A stretch of 64,000 nucleotides of DNA from Escherichia phage JEP8. The translations under genes and the position numbers were made by a program. Positions 11,122-56,234 of this stretch are shown here, one piece after another (position 1 is the stretch's first letter; every line of letters starts with the position of its first letter). The stretch lies in the sequence record MT764208.1; one strand, 5' to 3'. Under the pieces are notes generated by a model. The model did no database searches. It had not been told where the DNA came from and worked only from the letters and a program-made list of their open reading frames with translations.

Positions 11122-12363
11122 ATGACTCATATTTTTACTGAACTGTTGCGGGAATCTACTTCCTCAGTAGCTAACCAGACAGCGCGACCGCAACTATTAT
11201 CATTAACTCGCGCGGTAAACAACCTGATTTTCTCTGATCTGGTAGCAATCCAGCCAACGGATCAACCAGTATCTGCATTGTACGGCCTACGTTATCTTAA
11301 TCGTGATGGTCAGATGACTTTCCGAACTGCTACAACCTACGGTGGCGCGGCTGGTGATCGCACAGAGATTGAAGAGTTTTCAAAAGAAAAATCTTATGAC
11401 GAAGGCGCACTGTTCAAATCAGACGATGTTGTATACGAAGTTGTGACCGCTGGTACAGTCGGTGAAGATGCCGAAACTCCAGAAGCTGCAATCTTTAAAG
11501 GCGTAATGACAAACAAAATTCGTTTCTATAGCGATTGTGCATCGGTAGAATACTTTGAAGATAAAAACACCGAAATTTCGTCTACCTCTATGCAGTTTGA
11601 TAAATGGCAGGTTAATGTAGGTTCTCGTAAACTGAAAACCTCATTCACGACCGAATTGATGCAGGATCTTGAGGCAAGCCAAATCAACTCTGAAAACTCT
11701 GTAATTGATCTTCTGGCTACTGTTGCTTCCGAAGAGATCAACAAAGATATTATTCAGAAGTTGATCACTGTATCATCTCGCTATAAAATTAAAGGGATCA
11801 CCCCTGATGGCGTACTTTCTCTCGTTAGCGTTAAGGATGCACCAACACAAGCGCGTGAACTTTACCGCTATGCTTGCGAAATGAGCAATCAAATGTTGCG
11901 GACTTCCTCCTTTGCTGGTACATACGTTTTGGCGTCTTCTCGCGTGGTTGGCCTCCTGCAATCTACCGGATGGATGGAAGAAACCGACAATGCTCTAAGC
12001 GAAGGTCGTCTACGTTGCGGTCTGGAAGTGTACGCAGACACGACGACACCTTTCGATTATATGCTCGTTGGTTGTAAGCACATGATCGGTGATATGGAGA
12101 GTGTAGGTTCTCTGTTCTACTCCCCATATACAGAAGCCGACGGCGCTGGCGCGTATAAGAGCGTAATTGACCCTAATAGCTTCCAGCATCATGTAGCTAT
12201 TATGAATCGTTATTCACTCTCTGTCAACCCATACACATCAAAAGTTGATCAGGAAGAACACCAGGTCATCAAGGGTGACGATTGGGGTAAAATGGCTGGA
12301 CGTTCAGAAATGTCCTACATTTTAGGAATCGAACTGCCACCGCTTGAGATTGACAACGCTTAA
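11122..12363 (+). CDS. 24: head vertex protein (gp24-like)
   Basis: start placed at the internal ATG (MTHIFTELLRES…) that aligns with the T4 gp24 N-terminus; gp23 paralog. Confidence 0.9.
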   Translation: MTHIFTELLRESTSSVANQTARPQLLSLTRAVNNLIFSDLVAIQPTDQPVSALYGLRYLNRDGQMTFRTATTYGGAAGDRTEIEEFSKEKSYDEGALFKSDDVVYEVVTAGTVGEDAETPEAAIFKGVMTNKIRFYSDCASVEYFEDKNTEISSTSMQFDKWQVNVGSRKLKTSFTTELMQDLEASQINSENSVIDLLATVASEEINKDIIQKLITVSSRYKIKGITPDGVLSLVSVKDAPTQARELYRYACEMSNQMLRTSSFAGTYVLASSRVVGLLQSTGWMEETDNALSEGRLRCGLEVYADTTTPFDYMLVGCKHMIGDMESVGSLFYSPYTEADGAGAYKSVIDPNSFQHHVAIMNRYSLSVNPYTSKVDQEEHQVIKGDDWGKMAGRSEMSYILGIELPPLEIDNA

Positions 12364-27894: not shown

Positions 27895-29946
27895 TTACAT
27901 TTTAAATTTATCTGGCATTGCGTCTACAGATACCAGATCAGCGATAAGCTGACGTAGAGTTGCCTTATCTGCTTTCTTACGTTCGGTTTTAGCTTCGCTA
28001 ATGAAGCTGGAGAAAGACAGGTCAGAAGCAGGTTTAATAACACCTTCACGGATGAATGCATCACCGTCTGCGATCATCTCGCCAGATTCTTGTAATGCTG
28101 CCAGTTCATTTTTGTTCATAATATGTGCCTCAATGTAATAAGTTTCTTGTGAATCCGTCGATGCCGTAGCACGAGTTACCGTATCAAAGGATAACACAAC
28201 ACCGCGAGGAAGTAAAATCTCGCATTCTTTGTAAGCAAATGCTTTGTTACCTACTGGCAATACAGGGATGTTTTCCGCGCCAGCAATGGAGAAAGCAACA
28301 TTAGCGCCACCTTCACCGCGAGAGCCAGCCATAGAATCTACACCAGCAACGGCACTAGCCACGTTTGCATTCCAGCCGCCAAAAATGTTAGGTGCAAGGG
28401 AAGTGCTCACATAGTTTTTAAAGTAAAACGCTTTTTGCTTACGTGCAGTTTCCCACATTTGCGACCGGAAGTCCATACCACGATACAGAATAGTACCAGG
28501 ATCAAGTTTAACACCATAGTTAGAGAAGGCATTATCCAGTGCATCGCACATCTTGACCAATTCTTCTGGATCTGCGATTCCCTCAAACTCTTCCAGCTTA
28601 CGATCAGTTAGGAAGTTGTTCATATTGATGTATGCTGCATCGGCATATTCGCTCAACACAAAACCTTCCGCGCCCGGCAGATCAAGATCAATATCTGCCA
28701 TCATTTCACCCATGTTGCTAGCAATTGCTTCAAACATACCGGACGCAACATTACGAAGGGCATCGGTTTTAATCTGGGTGATATGACTACGCAGCATTTC
28801 AGCTTTTACATCTGCTGGCATAGACTGGTCTACTCGATCCATTGCCAGGGCGGTGATCTTGTTTTCAAATACTTCCTCGCTCATGATTTCTTTTAAGCGT
28901 TTGATTGATGCTGCGATAACTTCCGCAGACAACGGATCATATTGATCCTGAACTTTTACCAGTTCGCTTACTGCGTATTTTGCATCGGCTTCGCTTTCAA
29001 AAATAGTACGCATGAAACCATAGCGAGTGATAATATCACTTGTCCAGTCATTCAGAGAACGGGCGGTTGAACGTTCTAAGGCTTGACGGTCAATCAGAGT
29101 ATTAAACTGTTTCTTAGGTTCTGCTTCGGTGATATCTTCTTCCGGTTTAAGATTAATTTTTTCTGGATGATTCACGTAGTCGCTGTTATAGGTCGCTTGA
29201 GTTTTCAGCATTTCTTCTTTAGTCAAACGAGATTTAGCCGCTACGCGTTGTTCTGCTTCCGCGTTTCGTTCTTCTTCTGACACAAGACTAGCCGCATACG
29301 CCTCATCTTTAGTCAGAGATTCACCAGTAGCCTTAGATACCCAGCGATCACCTAAATCACTTTCTACTTTAGTGAACAAGGATTCATCAAGTTTAATCCC
29401 TTTAATCTTATCAATCGCCATCCCGCGACGCTTGACAACAACTAAAGCGATCTTTTTGCTGGTCATTACTTCCTGCTGGAATACTTCAAACTTCGGTGTA
29501 CGACGCACCAAACGCTCTATAACGCGCTTAACCAGTTCGGTCTTACCTTTCATGCGGGATACGTTAAAACGGAACATAACAGCGTCTAATTGCGCTTTAC
29601 GGGCTGTTTCCATAACCACATCAAAAGCACTTGCCATAACTGCAATCGGGTTATCGCCTAGACCATTTTTAAGCTGTACAATACGACCGCTTTTGTTCAT
29701 TTCGCACAGTACAACATGTGCGGTTTTGTCACCCATACGAATGATTTTAGGTGTTTTGTTGGTGAAGTTACAAAGACGGACAATCACATCTTTATCGCGT
29801 GTCTGTACTGCAAAAAGCTGTTTAGGATTCTGCTTAGGCTTTAAGCACTGTACCGGAGCAATACTGCCAAAGTTTTCTTCCTCTTCCGTCAACAGCCATT
29901 TCTCGAAAGATTCAATCATTAGATCGTCGATTTCTAAGTTAAACAT
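27895..29946 (-). CDS. alt: Alt ADP-ribosyltransferase (packaged RNAP-modifying enzyme)
   Basis: 683 aa (T4 Alt is 682 aa); conserved ART motifs; located after gene 54 as in T4. Confidence 0.9.
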   Translation of the reverse strand: MFNLEIDDLMIESFEKWLLTEEEENFGSIAPVQCLKPKQNPKQLFAVQTRDKDVIVRLCNFTNKTPKIIRMGDKTAHVVLCEMNKSGRIVQLKNGLGDNPIAVMASAFDVVMETARKAQLDAVMFRFNVSRMKGKTELVKRVIERLVRRTPKFEVFQQEVMTSKKIALVVVKRRGMAIDKIKGIKLDESLFTKVESDLGDRWVSKATGESLTKDEAYAASLVSEEERNAEAEQRVAAKSRLTKEEMLKTQATYNSDYVNHPEKINLKPEEDITEAEPKKQFNTLIDRQALERSTARSLNDWTSDIITRYGFMRTIFESEADAKYAVSELVKVQDQYDPLSAEVIAASIKRLKEIMSEEVFENKITALAMDRVDQSMPADVKAEMLRSHITQIKTDALRNVASGMFEAIASNMGEMMADIDLDLPGAEGFVLSEYADAAYINMNNFLTDRKLEEFEGIADPEELVKMCDALDNAFSNYGVKLDPGTILYRGMDFRSQMWETARKQKAFYFKNYVSTSLAPNIFGGWNANVASAVAGVDSMAGSRGEGGANVAFSIAGAENIPVLPVGNKAFAYKECEILLPRGVVLSFDTVTRATASTDSQETYYIEAHIMNKNELAALQESGEMIADGDAFIREGVIKPASDLSFSSFISEAKTERKKADKATLRQLIADLVSVDAMPDKFKM

Positions 29947-31414: not shown

Positions 31415-32130
31415 TATAGATCCTTATTTGCTTCAAATACTGCCTTTGCGAATCCTCGCGGGGTAAGTGACCTTATAGTCTTTGTTCTGGTTCCTTTCCC
31501 GCCTAGCTTAGAATGCTGTTTACTGTACCCTTTATTAATCTGCAACGGTTTCTTTTCTGGCATTATAAAGCCTTGTCCGGTCCATAAGCAAGTCTTTTTC
31601 GGGTACATATCACGGGCGGCAATATACTCAGGAAACGTAGGATGCTTATCATCTTCCGGCAAATAACCGCCATATTCCCACGGATGGAACATGTAATCAG
31701 GCTTACGCCACATGCTAGAGATAACGCTTACAGGATTCTCTATCATGTAGGGAACTCCGAGCCATTCACCCAAATAAGCGGTTATTTTAGCTGCCCGTAC
31801 ATCATGAACTTGAATCAATGGTCCTTGTTCTCGTTTCTTTCGTTCAAAGTGCGCAGCGCCACTAACAGCTAAATTGGTGCACGGTGGGAATGCAAAGATA
31901 ATATCCGGTTTCCCCCATTCAAGGTCCATTGCTCTTTCCAGCCAGTTCAAATCAATCCAGGTGTTTACATAGGTAATGTTTGGATGTTCAAATCTGGTAT
32001 TATACTTTTTGTATGTACCGTGGTCGGCGTCATCCGCATTAAAGCAGACTACCTTATGACCTGCTTTAGCCCATTCTAGCCCCATTATCCCCGATCCGTC
32101 AAAGTTGCAGAATATTAATTTTTGTTTCAT
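31414..32130 (-). CDS. C5-cytosine methyltransferase-like protein, truncated (catalytic motifs I, IV, VI only)
   Basis: 238 aa; motif I FCNFDGSGIMG, motif IV PDIIFAFPPCTNLAVSG (PC Cys), motif VI YMIENPVSV (ENV-like); colinear with the M.HhaI N-terminal half; no target-recognition domain or motifs IX/X visible. Confidence 0.6.
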   Translation of the reverse strand: MKQKLIFCNFDGSGIMGLEWAKAGHKVVCFNADDADHGTYKKYNTRFEHPNITYVNTWIDLNWLERAMDLEWGKPDIIFAFPPCTNLAVSGAAHFERKKREQGPLIQVHDVRAAKITAYLGEWLGVPYMIENPVSVISSMWRKPDYMFHPWEYGGYLPEDDKHPTFPEYIAARDMYPKKTCLWTGQGFIMPEKKPLQINKGYSKQHSKLGGKGTRTKTIRSLTPRGFAKAVFEANKDL

Positions 32131-32372
32131 ATACGACCCTTTAACCCAGCACAGATTTTAGTCGGTTCTTTACCGTGCCACATTAAGTAAAGTCCGTTAA
32201 TGCGACCTTGTTTTGTGTGTGATTCTTTTCTGATCTTCTTATAGTGTCGTGCTTCCTCAACCGATTGTTTAGAATACCAATCATAAAGGAAGAGGCACAA
32301 AGGCCAACCATTAGCGGCCTTAATGCAGTTATTAAGAAATTCCTTATTGCGTTTAATTAATTTTCTTTTCAC
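32127..32372 (-). CDS. hypothetical protein (81 aa)
   Basis: basic small ORF overlapping neighbours by 4 nt on both sides (operon member). Confidence 0.35.
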   Translation of the reverse strand: MKRKLIKRNKEFLNNCIKAANGWPLCLFLYDWYSKQSVEEARHYKKIRKESHTKQGRINGLYLMWHGKEPTKICAGLKGRI

Positions 32373-32620
32373 GCTGCCCCCATTGGTTTGATAGTAACAG
32401 AATCTAAAAGACCTTTGTTAGCCAGTTCGCGGCAAGTTTTCAGATCCGCAACTTCCCAGCCAGCCGCAATCAGGTTATCAATCAGGCTGTTAGCAACTTC
32501 TTCGCTCATGAAAGAGCACTGTTTGCCGATGGTGTAGCGTACACGCTGTAATTTCAGTTTACGGAAGCCTTTAACGTTCAGGTCTTTAGCGATTTTCTTT
32601 GCGGTTTCGATGTTAGCCAT
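32369..32620 (-). CDS. hypothetical protein (83 aa), first gene of cassette
   Basis: ORF directly downstream of a PeSL-type promoter. Confidence 0.4.
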   Translation of the reverse strand: MANIETAKKIAKDLNVKGFRKLKLQRVRYTIGKQCSFMSEEVANSLIDNLIAAGWEVADLKTCRELANKGLLDSVTIKPMGAA

Positions 32621-32660
32621 TGTTTGATTCTCCTAAGTGGTATCTCGTCTTGATGGTTGT

Positions 32661-32689
32661 ATTGTAGGGGAGTTATCCTCCCCTGTCAA
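32661..32689 (-). promoter_or_regulatory. PeSL-type early promoter (TTGACA-GGGGAGgataaCTCCCC-TACAAT)
   Basis: minus-strand; palindromic 17-nt spacer; approximate. Confidence 0.55.
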
Positions 32690-32703
32690 CACTTTTTATA
32701 AAA

Positions 32704-32871
32704 TTATTTGTTAATTTCTGGTGCGTTGCTAGGATAGTAACCTTCTTTAACTCCGAGGTATTTCGCAACCATCCCTACAATCTTCTGTGCTACTACAATG
32801 TCAAATTTCAGATAATCTTCGCCGTGGGTTTCAATGATATATGCTTCACATGCTGCTTTAGTCTCGAACAT
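32704..32871 (-). CDS. hypothetical protein (55 aa), paralog of 35962-36129
   Basis: MFETKAACEAYIIETHGEDYLKFDIVVAQKIVGMVAKYLGVKEGYYPSNAPEINK; about 85-90% identical at DNA and protein level to the copy at 35962-36129. Confidence 0.45.
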   Translation of the reverse strand: MFETKAACEAYIIETHGEDYLKFDIVVAQKIVGMVAKYLGVKEGYYPSNAPEINK

Positions 32872-32904
32872 TTTGATTCTCCTATTTCGTTTCGGTATGT
32901 GTGT

Positions 32905-32933
32905 ATTATAGGGGATCTCCCGATCCCCGTCAA
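32905..32933 (-). promoter_or_regulatory. PeSL-type early promoter (TTGACG-GGGATCgggaGATCCCC-TATAAT)
   Basis: minus-strand; approximate. Confidence 0.55.
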
Positions 32934-32947
32934 CAACTTTTTTAAAA

Positions 32948-33229
32948 TTATTCGTGATTAGTTTCGATGTTGTGCATTTTGCACCAATTCAGCCAATCAC
33001 CCAGATCCTGATAGTTAATGCTTTTATCTGCTGCCATCGTTTTTGTCTTGATACCCATATGTGCGTTATGAGTAAGCATTTTTACAGTGAACTCAATTTT
33101 ATCGCCTTTAGCTTTAACATCAACCAGTTTGGTCCACTGGCTACCAGCGCCGCGAATGTTCATACCAACGATGTTTCCGATGTATGCTTCTTTGTTTTTC
33201 AGGATTTCGGTTGCTTTGATGAATTTCAT
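32948..33229 (-). CDS. hypothetical protein (93 aa)
   Basis: ORF behind PeSL promoter; no motif recognised. Confidence 0.4.
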   Translation of the reverse strand: MKFIKATEILKNKEAYIGNIVGMNIRGAGSQWTKLVDVKAKGDKIEFTVKMLTHNAHMGIKTKTMAADKSINYQDLGDWLNWCKMHNIETNHE

Positions 33230-33262
33230 TTTTGATTCTCCAGTTCGTTTCGGTATGGGTGT

Positions 33263-33291
33263 ATTATGCTATGTTCTTACTTTGGTGTCAA
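33263..33291 (-). promoter_or_regulatory. PeSL-type early promoter (TTGACA-N17-CATAAT)
   Basis: minus-strand; approximate. Confidence 0.5.
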
Positions 33292-33299
33292 CAACTTTT

Positions 33300-33569
33300 T
33301 TAGATATTTTCAGAAATAAATTTTAAAACTTGACGTAAATGTTTCTCATCTTTGATAGTCGCCGGAAGTTCTTCTTTTACTTCCTGTGCAAGATAGATAT
33401 TTCCGTTCCAAGTGAAAGATCCGTCTTCGTTTACGCGATAGCTGAACATCCACTCGCAATCATTTTCGATTTCATATACACACAGAAGAGTGTAATCTTC
33501 AAAGCTATTGAGTTCAAGGTCGAAGCCGTGACGTTTTGCAAAGTTGGTAGTGGTTTTAGTCAGTGCCAT
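33300..33569 (-). CDS. hypothetical protein (89 aa)
   Basis: ORF behind PeSL promoter. Confidence 0.4.
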   Translation of the reverse strand: MALTKTTTNFAKRHGFDLELNSFEDYTLLCVYEIENDCEWMFSYRVNEDGSFTWNGNIYLAQEVKEELPATIKDEKHLRQVLKFISENI

Positions 33570-33609
33570 TGTTTGATTCTCCTAAGTGGTATCTCGTTTC
33601 GATGTGTGT

Positions 33610-33639
33610 ATTATGCTATAGGCGTGATCTGGTGTCAAT
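33610..33639 (-). promoter_or_regulatory. PeSL-type early promoter (TTGACA-N18-CATAAT)
   Basis: minus-strand; approximate. Confidence 0.5.
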
Positions 33640-33663
33640 GCCTTTTTTAAAATTTTATGCAAT

Positions 33664-33688
33664 AAAAAAGCCGACACTAAGGTCGGCT
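33664..33688 (-). terminator. rho-independent terminator (minus strand)
   Basis: AGCCGAC-actaa-GGTCGGCT hairpin with plus-side A-run. Confidence 0.5.
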
Positions 33689-33695
33689 AATAAAA

Positions 33696-34004
33696 TCATT
33701 TAGACAAATAATCATTCTGTGCAATCCGGTCGGCGTATGCTGGTGTTATGTCAATCGCCAGCACTTTAACGCGTGCTTTCTTGCGACCTGGGTTTTCTCG
33801 TAACCAGTGCTCATGGCCGTGAACATTTTTATACTGCGATGCTTCTTCGAAGGTACGGATCGGACCTGGGTAATCAGCGTAAAGGATCTCTAGATCTTCG
33901 GTGATGTAAAAATATACATCGTAATTGCTGTTCTCTAGCTTAAGCAGAGACTTTCGGAACATTGGGAGATTTTCGCGGGTAAATTCAAAGATATTATCTT
34001 TCAT
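33696..34004 (-). CDS. HxHW-motif small protein, paralog family member a
   Basis: 102 aa; …YDVYFYITEDLEILYADY…NVHGHEHWLRENPGRKKARVKVLAIDITPAYAD…. Confidence 0.5.
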   Translation of the reverse strand: MKDNIFEFTRENLPMFRKSLLKLENSNYDVYFYITEDLEILYADYPGPIRTFEEASQYKNVHGHEHWLRENPGRKKARVKVLAIDITPAYADRIAQNDYLSK

Positions 34005-34027
34005 AGTATTATCCTCAATAGTTGGAT

Positions 34028-34048
34028 GAAAAGGGGCTTAACGCCCCG
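34028..34048 (-). terminator. rho-independent terminator (minus strand), repeat of the 29987 hairpin
   Basis: GGGGC-ttaac-GCCCC with A-run. Confidence 0.5.
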
Positions 34049-34052
34049 TATA

Positions 34053-34340
34053 TTAAAACAGTCCTTCCTGTACACCGTAGTAGAGTTCATCGCTGATAAT
34101 TTCATTAATGCGACGGTGTGCATATTCCTGATTTGCGAAGTTGTCAGCAAGTTCTACTTTAGTTTCGCCGTCATGAGTCCATTTAGTGATAACTTTACCA
34201 TCGGCAAATTTGAAGTTGAACTCTTTAGCTACCGCATCGCGTACCAGACGTGCGAACTTGTTGTTACGGATTGCATTATCGGTTTCGTGTGCAGCGTGAG
34301 CAAATTTGTTAACTTTCAGAGTGATGGTGATGTATGCCAT
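34053..34340 (-). CDS. hypothetical protein (95 aa), paralog of 37346-37657
   Basis: shares …ARLVRDAVAKEFNFKF… with …TLIREVRKALAKEFNTKI… in the 37346-37657 protein. Confidence 0.45.
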   Translation of the reverse strand: MAYITITLKVNKFAHAAHETDNAIRNNKFARLVRDAVAKEFNFKFADGKVITKWTHDGETKVELADNFANQEYAHRRINEIISDELYYGVQEGLF

Positions 34341-34386
34341 AATTTGATTCTCCTAGTTAGAAAGTGTATCTCGTTTCGATGGGTGT

Positions 34387-34415
34387 ATTATGCTATACAC
34401 CCGATCTTATGTCAA
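34387..34415 (-). promoter_or_regulatory. PeSL-type early promoter (TTGACA-N17-CATAAT; -10 inside hairpin GGGTGTAT…ATACACCC)
   Basis: minus-strand; approximate. Confidence 0.55.
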
Positions 34416-34421
34416 CACTTT

Positions 34422-34715
34422 TTATAAAATAATTTTTTGATATTTTTCTATGATGTTTGTGTAGGTCACATCAACCGCGAGCACCGTTGCTTCGAATCCA
34501 CCGTTTAGCCAATGGCTATGATCGTGATCGTTAAAGAAACCGAGGCCAGTGCGAAGACCTTCTTTATATTCGGCGCGTACATTCAGTTTGTCGTCGATAA
34601 ACAGATAAAACCATGAATTTTTACTAGGATTGATGATACAACCTTTCAGATTAGGGAGAATATCACGACTAAGAATAAACTTATCACCTACTTTGAACAT
34701 AATATTAGTCCTCAC
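34422..34715 (-). CDS. HxHW-motif small protein, paralog b
   Basis: 97 aa; …WFYLFIDDKLNVRAEY…NDHDHSHWLNGGFEATVLAVDVTYTN…. Confidence 0.5.
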   Translation of the reverse strand: MRTNIMFKVGDKFILSRDILPNLKGCIINPSKNSWFYLFIDDKLNVRAEYKEGLRTGLGFFNDHDHSHWLNGGFEATVLAVDVTYTNIIEKYQKIIL

Positions 34716-35025
34716 TTATAAGGTCAAACCAATTGTTTTTCGCATAATGCTTAATGCGTGCTTGATCTGCTTCCGCTGGTGATAGATTCCATGCAACCAC
34801 TACAACTTCTGACGCATCGTCATCCGTTTTTGATACCCAATGATTGTGATTCATACAGTTATTTGCTATCGAGTGAGCAAATGATTTCATCACTGGAGAC
34901 GTATAATCATAGTAACGGATTTTCAGATTTTCATCAACATACAAGTAGATCGTATACGGCTTATATTCAGTAACCAATAACAGACAGTTACGCAATTCTG
35001 GGAAAATCTTTTTAGTTAATTTCAT
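34705..35025 (-). CDS. HxHW-motif small protein, paralog c
   Basis: 106 aa; …YTIYLYVDENLKIRYYDY…NHNHWVSKTDDDASEVVVVAWNLSPAEAD…. Confidence 0.5.
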   Translation of the reverse strand: MKLTKKIFPELRNCLLLVTEYKPYTIYLYVDENLKIRYYDYTSPVMKSFAHSIANNCMNHNHWVSKTDDDASEVVVVAWNLSPAEADQARIKHYAKNNWFDLISED

Positions 35026-35227
35026 ATTCTAGTTCTCCGTAATACACAGTAATCCATTTTTCTTCATACTTTGTATCTTTCCAACACACAATCCCGTTTA
35101 CTGTGCAATCTTTGGAATTGACGAATGATTCATATTGTTCTGCATCTTCCATCATTGCATGAGCGGTCTTTTCATCGAATATATCGCAGATCGCTTTATA
35201 TGCTCGATAATCTTTAAATTTGCTCAT
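35012..35227 (-). CDS. hypothetical protein (MSKFKDY…), tandem paralog 1
   Basis: start placed at ATG of MSKFKDYRAYK…; adjacent gene starts MSKFKEYKAYQ…. Confidence 0.4.
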   Translation of the reverse strand: MSKFKDYRAYKAICDIFDEKTAHAMMEDAEQYESFVNSKDCTVNGIVCWKDTKYEEKWITVYYGELEYEIN

Positions 35228-35229
35228 AA

Positions 35230-35439
35230 TTAACACCACTCAAGAGTTTTTGAAAACACATCTATCCATTGTTGAGTATATGCGGTTTCTTTCCATGACA
35301 CAATACCAGTCGAATAATGGTTTTTGTTTCCAGAAAAGGACGGGCATTTTGATGCATCTTCCATCATCTTTTCGGCGAACTCTGGTGCGTATACTCGCAA
35401 AATCTGTTGATATGCTTTGTATTCTTTAAATTTGCTCAT
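35230..35439 (-). CDS. hypothetical protein (MSKFKEY…), tandem paralog 2
   Basis: start placed at MSKFKEYKAYQQ…; shares N-terminus and …MMEDA…GIV.WK.T.Y… with the neighbouring gene. Confidence 0.4.
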   Translation of the reverse strand: MSKFKEYKAYQQILRVYAPEFAEKMMEDASKCPSFSGNKNHYSTGIVSWKETAYTQQWIDVFSKTLEWC

Positions 35440-35704
35440 AATCATTCACTACCTTATCAGCTTCTTTTGTTGTTTTTACATCAACTGCGATAACTCGTAA
35501 AGGTTCGTCATGGTTCCACCAGTGGTCATGAATATCGGCTTGTGATTTATCACCAAAGGAATCACGAATATCATTTTTACATTTATAGCTAATGTGACCG
35601 TCATAGTCAACATAAAGGTAATTATCGAAAATCGGCGTTTTTAAGATCATACCGAAAAATCTTTCTTTGTGTGTCTTATCCAGCGTTGCAGTAATTCGCA
35701 TCAT
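35426..35704 (-). CDS. HxHW-motif small protein, paralog d
   Basis: 92 aa; …FDNYLYVDYDGHISYKC…DIHDHWWNHDEPLRVIAVDVKTTKEAD…. Confidence 0.5.
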   Translation of the reverse strand: MMRITATLDKTHKERFFGMILKTPIFDNYLYVDYDGHISYKCKNDIRDSFGDKSQADIHDHWWNHDEPLRVIAVDVKTTKEADKVVNDYEQI

Positions 35705-35716
35705 AATATATTCCTC

Positions 35717-35896
35717 TTAGAAAGGGATGGTCATTTCTTGAGCTTGTATGTTCTCGTTAGGATTAAACTTCATCCAACCGATATTGTCTACCAGCATATT
35801 TACATTTTTATCATATCCTACGTGAGTAGTCAACACTAAATGTGCTTTACCTTCAACGATGATTTCCATGTACTTCTGAACTTCGATAGCTTTCAT
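35717..35896 (-). CDS. hypothetical protein (59 aa)
   Basis: ORF MKAIEVQKYMEIIVEGKAHL… behind PeSL promoter; not in ORF track; approximate. Confidence 0.3.
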   Translation of the reverse strand: MKAIEVQKYMEIIVEGKAHLVLTTHVGYDKNVNMLVDNIGWMKFNPNENIQAQEMTIPF

Positions 35897-35929
35897 TTTT
35901 GATTCTCCGTTTGTTGTCTTGATGGGAGT

Positions 35930-35958
35930 ATCTTACTACTCCCTTTAATCATTGTCAA
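35930..35958 (-). promoter_or_regulatory. PeSL-type early promoter (TTGACA-N17-TAAGAT within GGGAGTA…TACTCCC hairpin)
   Basis: minus-strand; approximate. Confidence 0.45.
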
Positions 35959-35961
35959 CTA

Positions 35962-36129
35962 TTATTTGTTAATTTCTGGTGCGTTGCTTGGATAGTAACC
36001 TTCTTTAACACCCAGATATTTTGCAACCATTCCGGTGATCTTCTGTGCTACTACGATATCGAATTTCAGGTAGTCTTCACCGTGGTTTGCTACAATGTAT
36101 GCTTCGCATTCTGCTTTAGTCGGGAACAT
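35962..36129 (-). CDS. hypothetical protein (55 aa), paralog of 32704-32871
   Basis: start placed at MFPTKAECEAYIVANHGEDYLKFDIVVAQKITGMVAKYLGVKEGYYPSNAPEINK. Confidence 0.45.
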   Translation of the reverse strand: MFPTKAECEAYIVANHGEDYLKFDIVVAQKITGMVAKYLGVKEGYYPSNAPEINK

Positions 36130-36163
36130 TTTTGATTCTCCTATATCTCGTTGGTATGTGTGC

Positions 36164-36192
36164 ATTATAGGGGATCACCGATCCCCTGTCAA
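36164..36192 (-). promoter_or_regulatory. PeSL-type early promoter (TTGACA-GGGGATCaccGATCCCC-TATAAT)
   Basis: minus-strand; approximate. Confidence 0.6.
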
Positions 36193-36197
36193 CAACT

Positions 36198-36491
36198 TTA
36201 TAATGCTTTATATGCGTATTTCATAAATTTGTCTGCCACTTCATTGGCATGTTCAGCTTCTACGCCTGATTCGAGAACAATAGCTAGGTCGGTTTCGTCA
36301 TTCCCGCCGTACCAATGATTTGATGTTCGATTTTTTTCAATTGGAAATTGGTCACTTTTATCTGTGCGACAAAATACATCTAAATGCTCGTCGATGTAAA
36401 AGATCCAATCTTCATAAAGAATAACGGTATTAGCCAGATTTTTATTGCCTTCAACGAAAGGTTCGGCTACAAACAAATTAGTATGTTCCAT
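36198..36491 (-). CDS. HxHW-motif small protein, paralog e
   Basis: start placed at MEHTNLFVAEP… (RBS GAGGAAA); …VILYEDWIFYIDEHLDVF…SNHWYGGNDETDLAIVLESGVEAEHAN…. Confidence 0.5.
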   Translation of the reverse strand: MEHTNLFVAEPFVEGNKNLANTVILYEDWIFYIDEHLDVFCRTDKSDQFPIEKNRTSNHWYGGNDETDLAIVLESGVEAEHANEVADKFMKYAYKAL

Positions 36492-36507
36492 AGTAATTTC
36501 CTCAAAA

Positions 36508-36699
36508 TTATACAGCTTCGTAAACTTCCCAATGTCCAACACCAGCACGCTTAACGAAAAGGTTTTCTTTGATGTTATTCATAAACGTCTGGATGGATTT
36601 AATGCGGTTTGAAGGTTTCCATTCTTCGTTGGCATTGCGTCGATACATCATAACATTACCAGTTCGCTTATATTCAGCAACCATTTTAAGACCACACAT
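36508..36699 (-). CDS. hypothetical protein (63 aa)
   Basis: ORF MCGLKMVAEYKRTGNVMMY…; no motif recognised. Confidence 0.35.
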   Translation of the reverse strand: MCGLKMVAEYKRTGNVMMYRRNANEEWKPSNRIKSIQTFMNNIKENLFVKRAGVGHWEVYEAV

Positions 36700-36756
36700 A
36701 ATATTATCCTCAATTTGTGGGAGAGTATTACCCCTCCCAATGATTGTTATGTTATA

Positions 36757-37077
36757 TCACACAAAATGGCGTGTCAATGCTTCTTTTGCGGTTCCGCTAA
36801 GACTTTCGATCTCGCCTGGCATAACATCAACCGCCAGAACTTCTACAACATCCTCGGACCCTAACCAGTGAGTATGACCTTTGTAGAACTTGATAACCAG
36901 ACTACCTTCCTCGTCCCATTTAACGCTATCGCTAGCCCACCACACATCACCGTCGATAAAGTTGATGTAAAGCACACTACGCCACATTGAATTAATTACT
37001 TTCAATACTGCGCCTTTCATCTCTTCCACGGTATGGTCTTCCATTTTGAAGACCTCACCTACCTGAACTTTTGCCAT
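36757..37077 (-). CDS. HxHW-motif small protein, paralog f
   Basis: 106 aa; …VLYINFIDGDVWWASD…KGHTHWLGSEDVVEVLAVDVMPGEIES…. Confidence 0.5.
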   Translation of the reverse strand: MAKVQVGEVFKMEDHTVEEMKGAVLKVINSMWRSVLYINFIDGDVWWASDSVKWDEEGSLVIKFYKGHTHWLGSEDVVEVLAVDVMPGEIESLSGTAKEALTRHFV

Positions 37078-37094
37078 TTAGTCACCTCTCTTTA

Positions 37095-37274
37095 TTACAT
37101 AACAATCACGCCAGCCGTTGAAAGTTGATGTTTCAACTGAGCATTTTCTGCTACCGTCAAATCAATGATTTCTTGTGACGCTGCAATCATATATCCATTG
37201 GTGATATTGTTTTGCATCAGTTCAATGGTTTCTTCGTTGTAGCGGATTTTAGCGATGATTTCGTTGAAGTTCAT
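37095..37274 (-). CDS. hypothetical protein (59 aa)
   Basis: start placed at MNFNEIIAKIRYNEETIELMQNN… immediately after the conserved PeSL leader. Confidence 0.35.
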   Translation of the reverse strand: MNFNEIIAKIRYNEETIELMQNNITNGYMIAASQEIIDLTVAENAQLKHQLSTAGVIVM

Positions 37275-37308
37275 GATTGATTCTCCTAGTTCGTTTCGGT
37301 ATGTGTGT

Positions 37309-37337
37309 AGTATAGGGGATCGGTGATCCCCTGTCAA
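37309..37337 (-). promoter_or_regulatory. PeSL-type early promoter (TTGACA-GGGGATCggtGATCCCC-TATACT)
   Basis: minus-strand; approximate. Confidence 0.55.
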
Positions 37338-37345
37338 CAACTTTT

Positions 37346-37657
37346 TTAAAGTTTTTCCATGATAACGGTCATAATTACATCTTCTGCGCGAGCGGTCAGA
37401 TTATCAGCGTCAGCATGTGGGCGGTTGGTTGTTACAGAGATAACACCGTTGCGCACTGGTTTGATATTGATATCAAGATGATCCGCGAAACGTTCGCCAG
37501 TTACAGAATGAATTTTGGTGTTAAATTCTTTTGCCAGTGCCTTGCGAACTTCACGAATCAGGGTAGCGTTTTTCAGTTGGTTCTCCGCGCTCATGGTCTT
37601 CTGGGTGTTAATGGTTCCGTCGAAGTCAATCATTGGCAGCGTTACGATGTATTTCAT
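37346..37657 (-). CDS. hypothetical protein (103 aa), paralog of 34053-34340
   Basis: shared AKEFN motif region with 34053-34340. Confidence 0.45.
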   Translation of the reverse strand: MKYIVTLPMIDFDGTINTQKTMSAENQLKNATLIREVRKALAKEFNTKIHSVTGERFADHLDINIKPVRNGVISVTTNRPHADADNLTARAEDVIMTVIMEKL

Positions 37658-37702
37658 TTTTGATTCTCCGTTTAAGAAAGTGTGTTTCGTTTTGATGTGT
37701 GT

Positions 37703-37731
37703 AGTATAGGGGATACGTGATCCCCTGTCAA
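37703..37731 (-). promoter_or_regulatory. PeSL-type early promoter (TTGACA-GGGGATacgtGATCCCC-TATACT)
   Basis: minus-strand; approximate. Confidence 0.55.
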
Positions 37732-37744
37732 CAACTTTTTTGAA

Positions 37745-38221
37745 TTATTTTTCTTGATGCTCGCGCTCGTACTTTTCGAAATAAAATTCTACTGGCTGGT
37801 CATGAATTGACAGCAAGCCAAAGCGTTTAGCCGCTCGCAATCCCATATTGCGCTGAATGTACTTCTGGAAGTTCTCGCGTATACACTTACGCCAGTATTC
37901 TAAGCCCATACAGCTTTTATAAAGATTGCATTGCACACACGCCGGATTCATGTTATCAAGTATATCATGCTCCGGTTTATGCATTCCTACGACCTTATAC
38001 TTCCACAATCCATCATCATTACGGGCAATTCGTCCATTTTCATCATAGACTACCTTTGAGCGTCGCAATACTGGTTTGATGTGGTCTGCGTGCCAGCGAT
38101 CCCCTAGTTCCTCGCCACAATAGGCACAACGTCCACCGTATTTCATTTTCAGGATCTGGCGTTGCTCTTTCTTTGACAATTTTTTAGGTTTAGGGGCTTT
38201 CGCCCCTTCATTATCACACAT
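37745..38221 (-). mobile_element. free-standing HNH endonuclease (putative homing endonuclease) gene
   Basis: 158 aa; HNH signature …GRCAYCGEEL…WHADHIKPV…DNMNPACVQCN…; sits between DNA ligase and the hyperplastic small-gene region. Confidence 0.7.
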
Positions 38222-39710
38222 CGAATACCTCTTTTACTGTATTTGCAGTGGTCTTGTCGTAGCGAATACGTTTGATGATTGGGAGAAATAAAGAGAACTC
38301 CGGTTCATCTTCTTTACGTGATTTGCTGCGAATGTACCCGTTGCATGTCATCTCAATGACTTTTCCAATCAGGTTATGACGGTCAGCCCATAACATTTCT
38401 CGGTCGAGTTCATTTCGACTATCGAACGGAATTACACGTTCGATACCATCATCACCTTTTTCGGTTGTGGTGTCGGTCAATCCCGATCCGGTGTTAGTCA
38501 TCATTCGTCCGCACGCACTACGGACAGTAAAACCGCCTACCTTATTAGGATCTTTACTATGCGGATATACATCAACAATTTCCGCGTCGAAGTCAATCAC
38601 TTCTTTAAATTTAACCTGATCTTTACTGCGACGATCTTCAAATACACCATGCAGATTTTTAAGGATAATACCTTCTAATCCCATGTTTACATAGCGATGA
38701 TATACTTCGCGAGCTTCATCGAGATTGTTAACTACGGTATTTTCGATTATCTGAACACGAGGATCGTTAAGTTCTTCAACAATCTGTTTTAGTTCTTCGA
38801 ATCGATCTTTATACTGCTTCGTTGCTTTCTCGTTACCGTAGTACACATCACGGTCGATAACATCCCAGACAGTGTAAACAATACATTGGGCTTCTTCTTT
38901 TGGAATAGTTCCTTTCAGTGATTTGTTGAGGATACCATTTCCGGTCTGACGATCTGCAACAACGGATTCTTTCACTGCTTCCGCTACTGGCGTTAATGGC
39001 ATTTCCTCTTCTTCAAATATCCATGACAGAGTACCATCATAAACGCTCTCAACGAAGTTCTGCGCTGGTGTTTGCGAAAGGGTAGGCATATATACCAATT
39101 CGCCATCTAGAACAATTCCACGGCCTCGTAGACGCTCTAAAACCGCAAACAAATCATCAAGCCCTTGATAGGTATTACCTGAGCGGGTATAGATTGCTAA
39201 TGTTTCCCCGTCAATATCAGCCATACCACGAGCGCCATCGCTTTTAAGTTGTGCATACGCCGGATACTTGATATTAGCAATAGTCTTATCAGAACATGAC
39301 GATGCAAGGTGGCACGGTTGCTGAGGGATCAGTTTCTTCCATACCTTGTTTGCAGTGGTAGCGGAACAGCCGCATTCCAGATCACGATTCAGGACCATCA
39401 TTGCAACTTTAGCATCATCCTCTGACAAGCAAGTCAGAGTATCGGTAACTAGTTGTAATGCTGCATTACCAGTTACTTGACGCGTGGCAAGTTTATTTTT
39501 AAAGACCTGTAATGCACCGGATAAAGACAATACAGACGAATAGCGAGATGGTTTATCGTATTTCTTTACGCCAAACGTAACCTGTTTGCAATATGCCAGA
39601 TAAAAGCATTCTTTCAGCGTTTCATTGCTCGCGGATTCTTTCAGAATCTTTTCTTTCAGCGATGTTTTGTCTGTTGCTGCAAGCTGATTAATGATATTAA
39701 GAATTGACAT
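38214..39710 (-). CDS. 30: ATP-dependent DNA ligase (gp30-like)
   Basis: start placed at ATG after GAGGTG; adenylation motif KSDGARG and colinear similarity to T4 DNA ligase. Confidence 0.93.
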   Translation of the reverse strand: MSILNIINQLAATDKTSLKEKILKESASNETLKECFYLAYCKQVTFGVKKYDKPSRYSSVLSLSGALQVFKNKLATRQVTGNAALQLVTDTLTCLSEDDAKVAMMVLNRDLECGCSATTANKVWKKLIPQQPCHLASSCSDKTIANIKYPAYAQLKSDGARGMADIDGETLAIYTRSGNTYQGLDDLFAVLERLRGRGIVLDGELVYMPTLSQTPAQNFVESVYDGTLSWIFEEEEMPLTPVAEAVKESVVADRQTGNGILNKSLKGTIPKEEAQCIVYTVWDVIDRDVYYGNEKATKQYKDRFEELKQIVEELNDPRVQIIENTVVNNLDEAREVYHRYVNMGLEGIILKNLHGVFEDRRSKDQVKFKEVIDFDAEIVDVYPHSKDPNKVGGFTVRSACGRMMTNTGSGLTDTTTEKGDDGIERVIPFDSRNELDREMLWADRHNLIGKVIEMTCNGYIRSKSRKEDEPEFSLFLPIIKRIRYDKTTANTVKEVFDV

Positions 39711-40176
39711 TTTCACCTCGTTTTGTTAAACGTTCACGAATATCATTGAGGATACTACAAAATTCCGATTCAGTCAATATAGTCTTTAACGGATCAGTTC
39801 CACCTATACTATGACGCAATTTCTTATTTCCGGTAGCGAGTAATGCTTTACAAAATTCTGGGTTATTCCGTGCCATCGTAACAAATGCCAGATGTACCAG
39901 TCTGTAATAATGCTCACTCATTCGATGAATCGGGCGACCCTGAAAATATAACATGTGATTCTCTATCTTTTCGGTCCTTCCGGTTCTTTTTGCTTTGCCA
40001 CCGTGCATCAAAAAGATTTCTCTTTGTCTCTGAGGGTTCTTAAATCTTAGCCCCTGTAAAAATCCTTCTGTGCTGTTAATATCGCAACCAAATAGACGGA
40101 ATGGTCTTTTATTGAAATTACTCAATTCACCCGATGGATAAGGTCCACCCGCATAGATATCAATTTCAGAAGTCAT
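39697..40176 (-). CDS. NADAR-domain (YbiA-like, DUF1768) protein
   Basis: 159 aa; …GELSNFNKRPFRLFGCDINSTEGFLQGLRFK… fits the NADAR signature; coordinates from ORF track. Confidence 0.6.
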   Translation of the reverse strand: MTSEIDIYAGGPYPSGELSNFNKRPFRLFGCDINSTEGFLQGLRFKNPQRQREIFLMHGGKAKRTGRTEKIENHMLYFQGRPIHRMSEHYYRLVHLAFVTMARNNPEFCKALLATGNKKLRHSIGGTDPLKTILTESEFCSILNDIRERLTKRGENVNS

Positions 40177-48053: not shown

Positions 48054-48221
48054 TCACTTTTTAACACAAAAGAACTTAGTATTTCTGTTAACTTCGCTAT
48101 CCTGCTGCAATTCCTGCACAGCTTCAAAACAATTTTGATATGATGAAAACTCTACGCTGGTAACAGTTCCTTTATTATATACGCCTACGCTAACGGAAAG
48201 CAATAACCATATTGTAGCCAT
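48054..48221 (-). CDS. hypothetical small protein with hydrophobic N-terminus (55 aa), tandem paralog 1
   Basis: MATIWLLLSVSVGVYNKGTVTSVEF…; not in ORF track; approximate. Confidence 0.3.
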   Translation of the reverse strand: MATIWLLLSVSVGVYNKGTVTSVEFSSYQNCFEAVQELQQDSEVNRNTKFFCVKK

Positions 48222-48396
48222 TAGTTCACCTTTTGTTTTTCAACGCAATATAGATTCATAAAGCGTTTATTGTCTTCGCGGATAATCTCGCGAGCTTTAA
48301 CGAAATCCTGCTTTGTTGCAAATTCAATGCTTGACATATTTCCGTAATTATACATTGAATTGCTGATTGCAATCAATAACCATACAGTAGCCATTA
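48221..48396 (-). CDS. hypothetical small protein with hydrophobic N-terminus (57 aa), tandem paralog 2
   Basis: MATVWLLIAISNSMYNYGNMSSIEF…; stop overlaps start of paralog 1; approximate. Confidence 0.3.
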
Positions 48397-53467: not shown

Positions 53468-53495
53468 ATTATACACTATTGCGTTACGCTGTCAA
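53468..53495 (-). promoter_or_regulatory. PeSL-type early promoter (TTGACA-N16-TATAAT)
   Basis: minus-strand; approximate. Confidence 0.5.
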
Positions 53496-55112
53496 CTCTT
53501 TTTCAAAAGTTTTTACGATATACATGATAGTGCTCAATTCAGACGGCGCTACTGTTTCTGTGTAGCCATCCGGCATATCTTCTTTTGAGATATAGGAAGT
53601 TTTACCTTTCATCGCTTCCTTGATCTTGTTCTCTAAGTCTAAGATCTTTTGACCGTCTTGTAAAGTCAATTCATAAAAGATCTCGTGGTTGAATTTGGAA
53701 AGTCGAGATTGACCTCCAATTCGTTCTTTTGTTGTTCTATTGGTTATTCCAAATTTAACGCCAACGAATATTTTTTCTTTTATTAGTTTTTGAATATACA
53801 ATACTCCTTTTTTTAAGGTATTATATCCATATTGTGCGCATTTAGGACAACGAGTTCCTTTCTGAAAGTTTGTTATTGTCGGTGTAAATTCATGGCCTTC
53901 ACTACACACCAAATTTAACTTTGTAGACACACCGTTCCATTCTCCAATAAATCCATTAAATATGATATTTTCTTTTTCGAAAATTGGTTTAAGTCTTTCA
54001 AGATATTCTTCTTTTGATAATGCATAATTATTTGCACATTTAGGACAACGAGTTCCATTCTGAAAACTGGATATGATAGGAGTGAAATTGTGGCCTTCAC
54101 AACACACCAAATCCAATTTTGTTACGTTACCTTTCCACTCACCAACGATTCCATTACAGGTTATATTTTCTTTAATAAATATCGGTGCTAATTTTTCGAA
54201 ATATTCTTCCTTTGGAATCAATTTACGTTCTCTTAATTTAAGAGCTTTACATTTCGGACAGCGGCGACCTTGTTGAAAAACTGCTATGCTCGGGGTGTAA
54301 TTGTGTTTTTCATTACACACCAAATTCAGCCTAGTTCTGCTACCTTTCCACTCACCAACGATTCCATTACAGGTTATATTTTCTTCAACGAAGATTGGTT
54401 TTAATCTTTTAAAATATTCTTCTTTTGATATTTTTCTACTGTTTCTCCAGTTGATAATACCGCAGGTCGAACACCTATTACCGGATTGAAAACCGTTTAC
54501 AGTCGGTGTAAATTTATGGCCTTCACTACACAATAAATTCATTTTTGTTGTGCTTCCGTTCCATTCTCCAATAAATCCATTAAATACGATATTTTCTTTT
54601 TCGAAAATTGGTTTAAGTCTTTCAAGATATTCTTCTTTTGATAGTAATTTCAATTCTCTTAATTTAAGAGCTTTACATTTAGGACAACGACTTCCGACCT
54701 GAAATGCTGTTATCGTCGGAGTAAATTCATGATCCTCACAACATGTTAAGTTTAGTTTTGTGTGCACGCCTTTCCATTCTCCGACGAATCCATTAAACTT
54801 TATATTTTCCTCAATAAAGATTGGTTTAAGTTTTTTATAATATTCTTCTTTTGATAGGGCATAATTATTTGCGCATCTAGAGCATCGTTTACCTTTTTGA
54901 AAATCTGATATTCTTGGTGTAAATTCATGTCCTTCACAACACACCAAACCCAATTTTGTTACGTTACCTTTCCACTCACCAACAAATCCATTAAATACGA
55001 TATTTTCTTTTTCGAAAATTGGTTTAAGTCTTTCGTAATATTCCAATGGGCTAATCGAGTTATAATTTTTCTTAACCCATTCAATCTCATGCGCCTTACG
55101 TACCAACATCAT
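53484..55112 (-). CDS. tandem-repeat zinc-ribbon protein (six repeats of about 70 aa; homing-endonuclease-associated-repeat-like)
   Basis: start placed at MMLVRKAHEIEW…; six repeats of consensus EEY.ERLKPIFEKENI.FNGF.GEWKG..TKLNL.C.EGHEFTP.I..FQ.G.RCPKC; C-terminal 110 aa non-repetitive. Confidence 0.5.
   Translation of the reverse strand: MMLVRKAHEIEWVKKNYNSISPLEYYERLKPIFEKENIVFNGFVGEWKGNVTKLGLVCCEGHEFTPRISDFQKGKRCSRCANNYALSKEEYYKKLKPIFIEENIKFNGFVGEWKGVHTKLNLTCCEDHEFTPTITAFQVGSRCPKCKALKLRELKLLSKEEYLERLKPIFEKENIVFNGFIGEWNGSTTKMNLLCSEGHKFTPTVNGFQSGNRCSTCGIINWRNSRKISKEEYFKRLKPIFVEENITCNGIVGEWKGSRTRLNLVCNEKHNYTPSIAVFQQGRRCPKCKALKLRERKLIPKEEYFEKLAPIFIKENITCNGIVGEWKGNVTKLDLVCCEGHNFTPIISSFQNGTRCPKCANNYALSKEEYLERLKPIFEKENIIFNGFIGEWNGVSTKLNLVCSEGHEFTPTITNFQKGTRCPKCAQYGYNTLKKGVLYIQKLIKEKIFVGVKFGITNRTTKERIGGQSRLSKFNHEIFYELTLQDGQKILDLENKIKEAMKGKTSYISKEDMPDGYTETVAPSELSTIMYIVKTFEKELTA
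53600..54990 (-). repeat. about 210-bp tandem coding repeats (x6) within the zinc-ribbon repeat gene
   Basis: repeated DNA segments correspond to the protein repeats; boundaries approximate. Confidence 0.6.
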
Positions 55113-55139
55113 TTTATCCTCCGTTGTTTCGATGTGTGC

Positions 55140-55167
55140 ATTATACATTACATCATCAGCATGTCAA
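55140..55167 (-). promoter_or_regulatory. PeSL-type early promoter (TTGACA-N16-TATAAT) upstream of the repeat protein gene
   Basis: minus-strand; approximate. Confidence 0.5.
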
Positions 55168-55229: not shown

Positions 55230-56198
55230 TTACATCGCTAACAGAGAATCCAGGTCATCCAGATCAGAAGCGGAGGAAGTACCGCCACCCAGGTCCAGAG
55301 ATGCCATCAGATCATCAGCGGAAGAATCTAACGCCGTGCTAGCTGCGTTAATACCAACTACAGTGCTAGCTGCGGTAGTACCAGCGTCGAATGCATTCAT
55401 CTGTGCGTCAAAATCATCAAGCTGGCTGTTAATCGCTGCCGCAGCACTGGAAGCCGCAGAACCAGCTACCATAGAAACGCCCATAGTTTTCTTAAATTTG
55501 GTTTCCAGTTCATCGAACGGTTTAAACTGGCTAGGCGCTACAATCTCACTCAGATCAACCATGTTTTCCATCAGATATTTCTGATATGCTTCGTCTTCAA
55601 TTTTCGGAAGCTGTGATTGCTGCATGAAACGAGAATCATCATAGTTCTGGTGTTTATCAACCTTCTTAGCTTTCAGGAGGAAGTTAGCACCGGAGAACAC
55701 ACAAGTTACATCTACCGGAACTTCGCCCATGTCGGTATTCACGTTCACCATTGCAACGATCTTATCATAAATTTTCTGACCGAAGCGGAATTTGAATACC
55801 TTACCTTCATTTTCTGGTGCTTGAGGATCTTTCAGTACCAGAATATTTGCGTAGTAAGACGCTTTACGCTTAATCAGTTGCCATTCTGTTTTATCGGTAT
55901 TGTACAGATCTTTTTCGTTAATATATTTGCACACAGGGCAAGAATCAAAATCACCGTGGGTGCTGGAGCAGTTTTCCCAATACCATTTGCCATTAACTTT
56001 GAAGGAATGGTTTACCAGTTTCACAATCGGCAGACCGTCTTCTGTCTTAGACGGCAGGAAGCGAATCAGGGCTTCACCGTTACCTGCTGCATCAGTCTTA
56101 ATCTTCCACTCTTTCGGATCTTCTTTGGAGAAACCGTTGCCACCTTTCAGTGCGGCCAGTTGAGCTTGCAGTTTGGAAGAATCTTGGCGTTTAAACAT
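55230..56198 (-). CDS. 32: single-stranded DNA-binding protein (gp32-like)
   Basis: start placed at ATG (MFKRQDSS…) after AAGGA; zinc site …[14 protein letters not shown]… and acidic/Ser-rich C-terminus match T4 gp32. Confidence 0.93.
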
Positions 56199-56234
56199 AT
56201 TCACTATTCCTTCTTTTGATTAATTTACTAGACT

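Follow-up and report, generated by a model that had tools for sequence, protein, structure and literature searches.

Introduction

The closest described counterparts of the locus considered here are the mobile regulatory cassettes of the T4-type coliphages RB49 and phi1, which are built around promoter-early stem-loops (PeSLs) (Arbiol et al. 2010, PMC2839356; Comeau et al. 2014, PMC4122927). PeSLs were defined in HPR3, a hyperplastic region of early genes that extends from alt to the DNA ligase gene 30; PeSL206/205 was measured to be a strong promoter in phi1, terminator activity of the PeSL211/210 stem-loop was measured in phi1/RB49, and mini-circles containing open reading frames (ORFs) ORF191-194 and ORF210, which were sequenced from phi1/RB49 infections, were proposed to be vectors of horizontal transfer (PMC2839356). 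In this study, we analysed the same region (30-38 kb) in a stretch of 64,000 nucleotides (nt) from Escherichia phage JEP8 (sequence record MT764208.1; the whole stretch is referred to as the window), in which an earlier note had described three recent gene duplications, among them two copies of a gene of 55 amino acids (aa), and had ascribed them to the duplication and shuffling of cassettes by repeated promoter modules.

Our overall reading, which we consider probable, is that the duplicates are ancient and arose by two routes, that cassettes are still being lost through exchange between one PeSL and another, and that the repeat formed by the two 55-aa genes serves as a substrate for recombination.

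Results

Paralogue families between alt and gene 30

Bases 32000-38000 of the window match 58 phage records at 90-98% nt identity, all of them Krischvirus (RB49/phi1-like T4-type coliphages), with ELT4 and ECD7 as the closest (approximately 98%), and the window is itself that of a Krischvirus. The phi1 annotation (ORF185-212) maps onto the window gene for gene, and the phi1 gene names are employed throughout. Every gene between alt (27895-29946) and gene 30 (38214-39716) is carried on the minus strand, and the 30-38 kb region, i.e. HPR3, is an array of small ORFan genes, the transcription units of which are short and begin with a PeSL, which combines a sigma-70 promoter and a stem-loop. Of the 18 genes that run from ORF191 to ORF210, 12 can be grouped into four paralogue families: the 55-aa genes ORF191 and ORF205 (pair 1), the tandem genes ORF201 and ORF202 of approximately 70 aa (pair 2), the PHROG 7474 genes ORF198 and ORF210 of approximately 100 aa (pair 3), and six genes of approximately 100 aa with an HxHW motif (ORF197, 199, 200, 203, 206 and 208). 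The coordinates and quoted peptides that had been given for the three pairs proved exact and all three duplications are real, while the largest family, that of the six HxHW genes, had been missed.

The 55-aa cassettes

Copy A (ORF191; 32704-32871, minus strand) and copy B (ORF205; 35962-36129, minus strand) both belong to PHROG 8009 and are 89% identical over 55 aa (BLASTP, E 4e-34). At the DNA level, self-blastn aligns 32703-32940 with 35961-36199 at 85% identity over 240 nt (E 4e-71). No other long coding match appears when 28-40 kb is plotted against itself, the remaining off-diagonal matches being promoter modules of approximately 70-100 nt. The nt alignment extends from the AT-rich/-35 portion of the upstream PeSL to 2 nt past the stop codon, at which point the following promoter starts. 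As the earlier note had stated, each copy lies directly behind its own PeSL, i.e. an 11-12/12 match to the sigma-70 consensus with a GGGG...CCCC stem-loop between the hexamers. The PeSL upstream of copy A (32872-32947, minus strand) is composed of TTGACG, a 17-nt spacer with a GGGGATC...GATCCCC stem-loop (stem GGGGATCGGGAGATCCCC), TATAAT and the Shine-Dalgarno sequence (SD) GGAGAATC, while that upstream of copy B, PeSL206/205 (36130-36197, minus strand; stem GGGGATCGGTGATCCCC), matches the consensus at 12/12 positions. Downstream, copy A is followed by the PeSL that serves as the ORF190 promoter (32621-32703, minus strand), and copy B by a promoter at 35897-35961 (minus strand; TTGACA-17-TAAGAT, with the stem GGGAGTA/TACTCCC over the -10 box) that heads the operon ORF204-203-202-201-200-199.

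The synonymous divergence (dS) between copies A and B is 0.92-1.04 and the non-synonymous divergence (dN) 0.05-0.06 (dN/dS approximately 0.06), as compared to a dS of 0-0.06 between orthologous copies of the window, phi1, RB49 and JK32, and both copies are present in 51 of the 58 Krischvirus records. A recent duplication would be recognised by a low relative dS and by a second copy confined to few genomes, neither of which was observed; the DNA identity of pair 1 is to be attributed to strong constraint on the protein and not to youth. By these measures, all of the duplications appear to be older than the radiation of the sampled genus, with the copies evidently held under purifying selection, and pairs 2 and 3 would be older still. 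Divergence is far greater in both of these pairs, and in the HxHW family, than in pair 1.

Copies A and B have upstream PeSLs that share 86% identity, which is no closer than that of copy A is to those of the unrelated cassettes P209 (86%) and P186 (85%), and the promoter part therefore bears no specific trace of co-duplication. Similarly, the PeSLs of ORF198 and ORF210 are 68% alike, less than P198 and P194 (73%), and the notion that the promoter modules of duplicated genes are specifically similar was consequently rejected. The alignment of flanking modules, which had been suggested as a means to locate the recombination junctions, places them no more finely than within the PeSLs.

With regard to distribution, the 55-aa family forms four 90% clusters among 5.8 billion proteins. 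A homologue (72% identical to copy A and 68% to copy B) is located at 3001-3156 of Escherichia phage vB_EcoS_swi2, an unrelated siphovirus of 47.6 kb, where it lies beside the terminase genes behind an ordinary promoter, with no PeSL. Four Salmonella phage records also match the gene, and a third variant, P0095, which displays a mix of A-like and B-like residues, occurs in metagenomes. When ORFs are called mechanically, copy B gains 12 codons (MHTYQRDIGESK…) that reach back into its own PeSL (35962-36165, minus strand), and this artefactual N-terminus is carried by at least one metagenomic protein record, P0096; alignment with copy A favours the start at 36129, which is likewise preceded by GGAGAATC. 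The structural model of the 55-aa protein (pLDDT 61, pTM 0.32, two predicted helices) was too poor for a fold search.

An alternative that we consider unlikely is that the 55-aa cassettes, together with ORF198 and ORF210, are pseudo-paralogues, which diverged in different phages and were subsequently united by horizontal transfer, e.g. as packaged PeSL mini-circles, in keeping with the proposal of Arbiol et al. (PMC2839356). Such a history would accommodate the dS between copies A and B (approximately 0.9 versus 0.06 or less within the genus), the occurrence of the gene in swi2 and in Salmonella phages, the mixed residues of P0095, and the highly divergent alleles of the neighbouring genes ORF201, 203, 206 and 197 (described below), which would point to frequent replacement from outside. 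However, copies A and B are mutually the closest known relatives, both being more distant from the swi2 protein, the swi2 copy is devoid of a PeSL, and no donor lineage with only an A-like or B-like gene was found outside Krischvirus, the family having only the four clusters mentioned above. That the duplications are recent and were generated by the repeated promoter modules is very improbable, for although pair 1 is 85% identical in DNA and its homology block has PeSLs at both ends, its synonymous sites are nearly saturated, 51 of 58 genomes have orthologues of both its copies, pairs 2 and 3 retain only 44% and 28% aa identity, respectively, and no promoter module lies between or around the copies of pair 2.

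Recombination among natural isolates

The region was compared base by base in nine genomes, namely the window and eight other Krischvirus. Isolates Brandy, JK32 and UPWr_E1 lack ORF191 and carry a single chimeric PeSL between ORF193 and ORF190, the 5' part of which (-35, stem-loop and -10) corresponds to PeSL193/191 and the 3' part (leader and SD) to PeSL191/190; the crossover zone, from the -10 box to the SD, is the zone that was sequenced in the ORF192-193 mini-circle by Arbiol et al. (PMC2839356). The same three isolates also lack ORF210, and in its place harbour a chimera of PeSL212/210 and PeSL210/209 with the switch at or before the stem-loop's loop, in agreement with the crossover in the RB49 ORF210 mini-circle (PMC2839356). 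These isolates indicate that cassettes are still being lost by exchange between PeSLs.

Cognac and FL04 possess a single 55-aa gene, with ORF206 upstream and ORF190 downstream, and lack an interval of 3,258 bp that comprises ORF193-204 (10 genes) and one 55-aa copy. The Cognac sequence is of the B type through the PeSL and SD and of the A type from the start codon onwards, which positions the crossover between the SD and the ATG, while FL04 switches from B type to A type inside the PeSL stem-loop. Additionally, the ORF206 alleles of Cognac and FL04 are 100% and 79% identical, respectively, to that of the window, and an RB49-type ORF211 is present in Cognac and absent from FL04. Given these different crossover points and genetic backgrounds, the two deletions are regarded as independent events of homologous exchange between the duplicated cassettes. 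Thus, indel junctions are situated inside PeSLs in the isolates lacking ORF191 or ORF210 and, in FL04, in the stem-loop, with that of Cognac falling between SD and ATG. The 55-aa gene of Cognac also contains a short B-type patch near its 3' end, and copy B of Brandy contains an A-type tract of approximately 45 nt even though Brandy has no copy A; both are read as patches of gene conversion.

Another natural deletion ending in a PeSL-rich stretch is seen in MIZ4 and MIZ5, in which a larger block, ORF186-ORF191, is missing and ORF193 is directly followed by ORF185 and alt (MIZ4 11686-12046). Furthermore, sharply divergent alleles occupy the same positions in different genomes: ORF201 (approximately 62% aa identity in 32 records versus 95% or more in 21), ORF203 (71% nt in phi1), ORF206 (76-79% nt in five of the eight compared genomes) and ORF197 (89% nt in three compared genomes). 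These imply that alleles are replaced, and that indels alone do not account for the variation.

Tandem copies within operons and the HxHW family

The second pair, ORF201 (35012-35227) and ORF202 (35230-35439), both on the minus strand and assigned to PHROG 8471, was correctly recognised as one of tandem paralogues (44% identity over 68 aa, E 3e-20), with DNA similarity restricted to the 5' ends (72.5% over the first 91 nt, the extent of its dot-plot match). ORF202 lies 2 nt upstream of ORF201 in the same six-gene operon with no promoter module between them, and the duplication is therefore not ascribable to PeSLs, contrary to what had been proposed for the whole set. Two copies of this family are present in nearly all Krischvirus records.

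The HxHW family was revealed by an all-against-all comparison of the ORFs of the window and comprises ORF197 (33696-34004), ORF199 (34422-34700), ORF200 (34705-35025), ORF203 (35426-35704), ORF206 (36198-36491) and ORF208 (36757-37077), all on the minus strand and distributed over PHROGs 9345, 17255, 15972, 16486 and 15965. The six proteins are collinear, with blocks of Y-x-Y/F-hydrophobic-D, H-x-H-W and a V-L-A-V-D-V-like strand, in which H and W are invariant. Among ORF197, 199, 200, 203 and 208, seven of the ten pairwise comparisons have corrected p values between 7e-9 and 5e-3, while ORF206, the most divergent member, joins the family only through a profile, by which ORF206-type proteins are retrieved at E 1e-13 to 1e-17. 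The six-member profile retrieves exclusively orthologues of these six genes, and finds just 22 representative clusters among 1.84 billion proteins. No fold match was obtained for the family, which does not extend beyond this phage group and, like the ORF198 and 55-aa families, is narrow in distribution. ORF199 and ORF200 (Smith-Waterman p = 1.9e-5) lie 4 nt apart in the same operon, again with no intervening promoter module, and are thus, like ORF201 and ORF202, adjacent same-strand tandem duplicates.

The gene order ORF210...208...205 and ORF198-197...191 hinted at a segmental duplication of a block composed of a PHROG 7474 gene, an HxHW gene and, further along, a 55-aa gene. This was rejected, as ORF197 is nearest to ORF200 (score 116) and not to ORF208 (65), and as the intervening small genes have no pairwise similarity.

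ORF198 and ORF210

The third pair, ORF198 (34053-34340) and ORF210 (37346-37657), both on the minus strand, had been connected by an AKEFN-containing block, which is indeed present in both. Beyond the promoter modules, the self dot-plot of 28-40 kb contains no DNA similarity between the two genes, and direct BLASTP of one protein against the other yields nothing (E = 8), while the Smith-Waterman score of 57 (shuffles 26 +/- 4.8) has a p value of 1.6e-4 (0.04 when corrected for 253 pairs). The PHROG 7474 profile matches both proteins over their full length (E 4.8e-43 and 1.4e-42), and tblastn from either protein reaches the same gene in approximately 30 Gaprivervirus-type phages, of which SP18 gp146 aligns full length and collinearly with ORF198 (E 3e-15) and with ORF210 (E 4e-13). 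An alignment of five sequences has 16 invariant columns along the whole protein, and a wider protein search placed the ORF198 homologues in two clusters. Owing to the SP18 gp146 bridge and the common PHROG, the paralogy is considered real, although distant (28% aa identity). We see hardly any likelihood that the resemblance is a chance or convergent short motif, since the failed BLASTP, the dissimilar coding DNA and the marginal corrected p value, which would favour this, are countered by the end-to-end profile matches, the reciprocal tblastn, the full-length alignments to SP18 gp146 and the spread of the invariant columns. In ORF210 of RB49 (2128-2457), six codons are duplicated in tandem and in frame (ERFADH ERFADH), a feature that is absent from the window.

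Promoter modules and transcription units

Transcription units were mapped from the intergenic sequences and a consensus promoter scan. The ten best sigma-70 matches (11-12/12, with a 17-nt spacer) are all intergenic and on the minus strand; among them are the near-consensus promoters, with an AT-rich upstream tract, at 32933 (copy A), 36192 (copy B), 34415 (ORF198) and 37731 (ORF210), each with a stable stem-loop between or over the hexamers. The PeSL upstream of ORF198 (34341-34421, minus strand) has its stem, GGGTGTA...TACACCC, over the -10 box and shares the leader motif ACACTTTCT with the leader of ORF210, whose PeSL (37658-37744, minus strand) has the stem GGGGATCACGTATCCCC. In gene order, with P for promoter, the units are P-ORF210; P-ORF209-208-(stem-loop)-207-206; P-ORF205; P-ORF204-203-202-201-200-199; P-ORF198-(terminator)-197-(terminator); P-ORF194; P-ORF193; P-ORF191; and P-ORF190-189.1-189-188-187. 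ORF191, ORF205, ORF198 and ORF210 are thus each the first gene behind a PeSL; ORF191, ORF205 and ORF210 each stand alone between two PeSLs as single-gene cassettes, ORF198 being proximal to its promoter. In this intergenic map, none of the HxHW genes lies directly behind a PeSL.

Other repeats in the window

Outside of the early region, a 554-aa ORF (53484-55148, minus strand) adjoins the gene of a gene 32-like ssDNA-binding protein (55230-56204) and encodes six tandem internal repeats of approximately 71 aa (period 198-213 nt) followed by a non-repeated C-terminal domain; each repeat contains a cysteine/histidine motif that resembles a zinc ribbon (…EGHxFTP…RCxKC). The all-against-all comparison additionally identified adjacent small paralogues at 48054-48221 and 48221-48394 (minus strand; 36% over 55 aa, E 1e-11).

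Discussion

Two routes of duplication are proposed. Dispersed single-gene cassettes (ORF191/ORF205 and probably ORF198/ORF210) would have been moved or copied by homologous recombination in their flanking PeSLs, presumably through excision of a mini-circle and its re-insertion at another PeSL, while the copies within operons (ORF201/202 and ORF199/200) may have arisen by local unequal exchange without the involvement of promoter modules. The 240-bp repeat of ORF191 and ORF205 is itself a recombination substrate, which in natural isolates has deleted 3.26 kb at least twice and has exchanged conversion patches. The promoter-module model put forward in the earlier note thus holds in part: it is well supported for the loss or gain of single-gene cassettes, as evidenced by the ORF191, ORF205 and ORF210 cassettes and the chimeric PeSLs at empty sites, whereas we infer its role in the origin of the duplicates. 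It fits pair 1 and ORF210 and does not fit pair 2 or most of the HxHW genes, which lie within operons with no promoter between them.

Several points weigh against this reading. The original duplications are too old to have left diagnostic junctions, with the PeSLs of copies A and B no more alike than those of unrelated genes; a chimeric PeSL by itself does not reveal whether ORF191 or ORF210 was lost or gained; the base-by-base comparison covers nine genomes; and the 55-aa cassettes may have originated in separate phages, in view of the homologue in an unrelated siphovirus and the P0095 variant in metagenomes.

With respect to function, no match above the Pfam cut-off was obtained for any of the ten proteins searched, and all PHROGs of the four families are annotated as 'unknown function'. 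The early strong promoters, purifying selection and divergent alleles would be in line with functions in host takeover or anti-defence. A bolder and rather doubtful extension is that the region between alt and gene 30 constitutes a self-renewing cassette nursery, where PeSL-bounded circles would copy as well as move early genes, the resulting paralogue families, above all the six HxHW genes with their highly divergent alleles, would represent a diversifying set of host-takeover or anti-defence proteins, and copy number and alleles would be tuned by PeSL and paralogue recombination; if so, it would be a homologous-recombination analogue of the integron or the poxvirus gene 'accordion'. The HxHW family in particular is a reasonable target for functional screens.

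The implications of these results are that old paralogues make up two thirds of the genes in the very region that served to define PeSL shuffling, that duplicated cassettes are themselves recombination substrates by which 10-gene blocks are removed in natural isolates, and that tandem duplication inside operons may provide new early genes by a second route that does not depend on promoters. On a practical level, these findings explain recurrent size polymorphisms of 3.3 kb in this region, and the 240-bp repeat could cause assembly collapse, which is of relevance to annotators and to phage-therapy genomics (phi1, ECD7, GEC-3S and JSE being therapy-related).

The mechanism and the region have already been published and the paralogy is implied by PHROG clustering, so that the new points are incremental: the known model gains detail and no new one is opened. 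The text of PMC2839356 contains neither 'duplicat' nor 'paralog', nor the names ORF191, 198, 201, 202 and 205; that of PMC4122927, searched for those two terms only, contains neither of them; Nolan et al. 2006 (PMC1524935) mention only alt-type paralogues; and a broad literature search for earlier reports of the present paralogues returned irrelevant papers only.

Comparison with known systems

The window shares with the PeSL cassettes of RB49 and phi1 the region itself (HPR3, ORF185-212), the sigma-70 promoter, G/C stem-loop and SD ahead of ORFans, the position of isolate indel junctions in PeSLs, and the cassettes known from mini-circles (ORF191-194 and ORF210). To the published work, the present analysis adds four paralogue families, their probable ancient age, tandem duplicates within operons that are independent of PeSLs, and a duplicated cassette pair (gene and PeSL) as the repeat for deletions of 3.26 kb and gene conversion. 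Repeated early promoter/stem-loop elements are also thought to drive shuffling at the internal-protein loci of T-even phages (PMC2839356), which are similarly arrays of small variable early genes parted by such elements; however, these possess T4-type early promoters and AT-rich stems and unrelated genes, and are analogous rather than homologous to PeSLs. The morons of lambdoid phages, discussed by Nolan et al. 2006 (PMC1524935), resemble the cassettes as small accessory genes placed between other genes with a promoter and terminator of their own. Morons deviate in GC content and are acquired by illegitimate recombination, whereas PeSL cassettes have a composition typical of the phage and move by homology of the regulatory module. 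With the gene cassettes of integrons, PeSL cassettes would have in common the excision of single genes next to the promoter in the form of small circles, and the re-insertion of these at a recombination site that occurs repeatedly. Unlike integrons, the phage system has no integrase or attC, each cassette has its own promoter, and exchange is presumed to proceed by the general homologous recombination of the phage acting on approximately 70-100 bp of PeSL homology.

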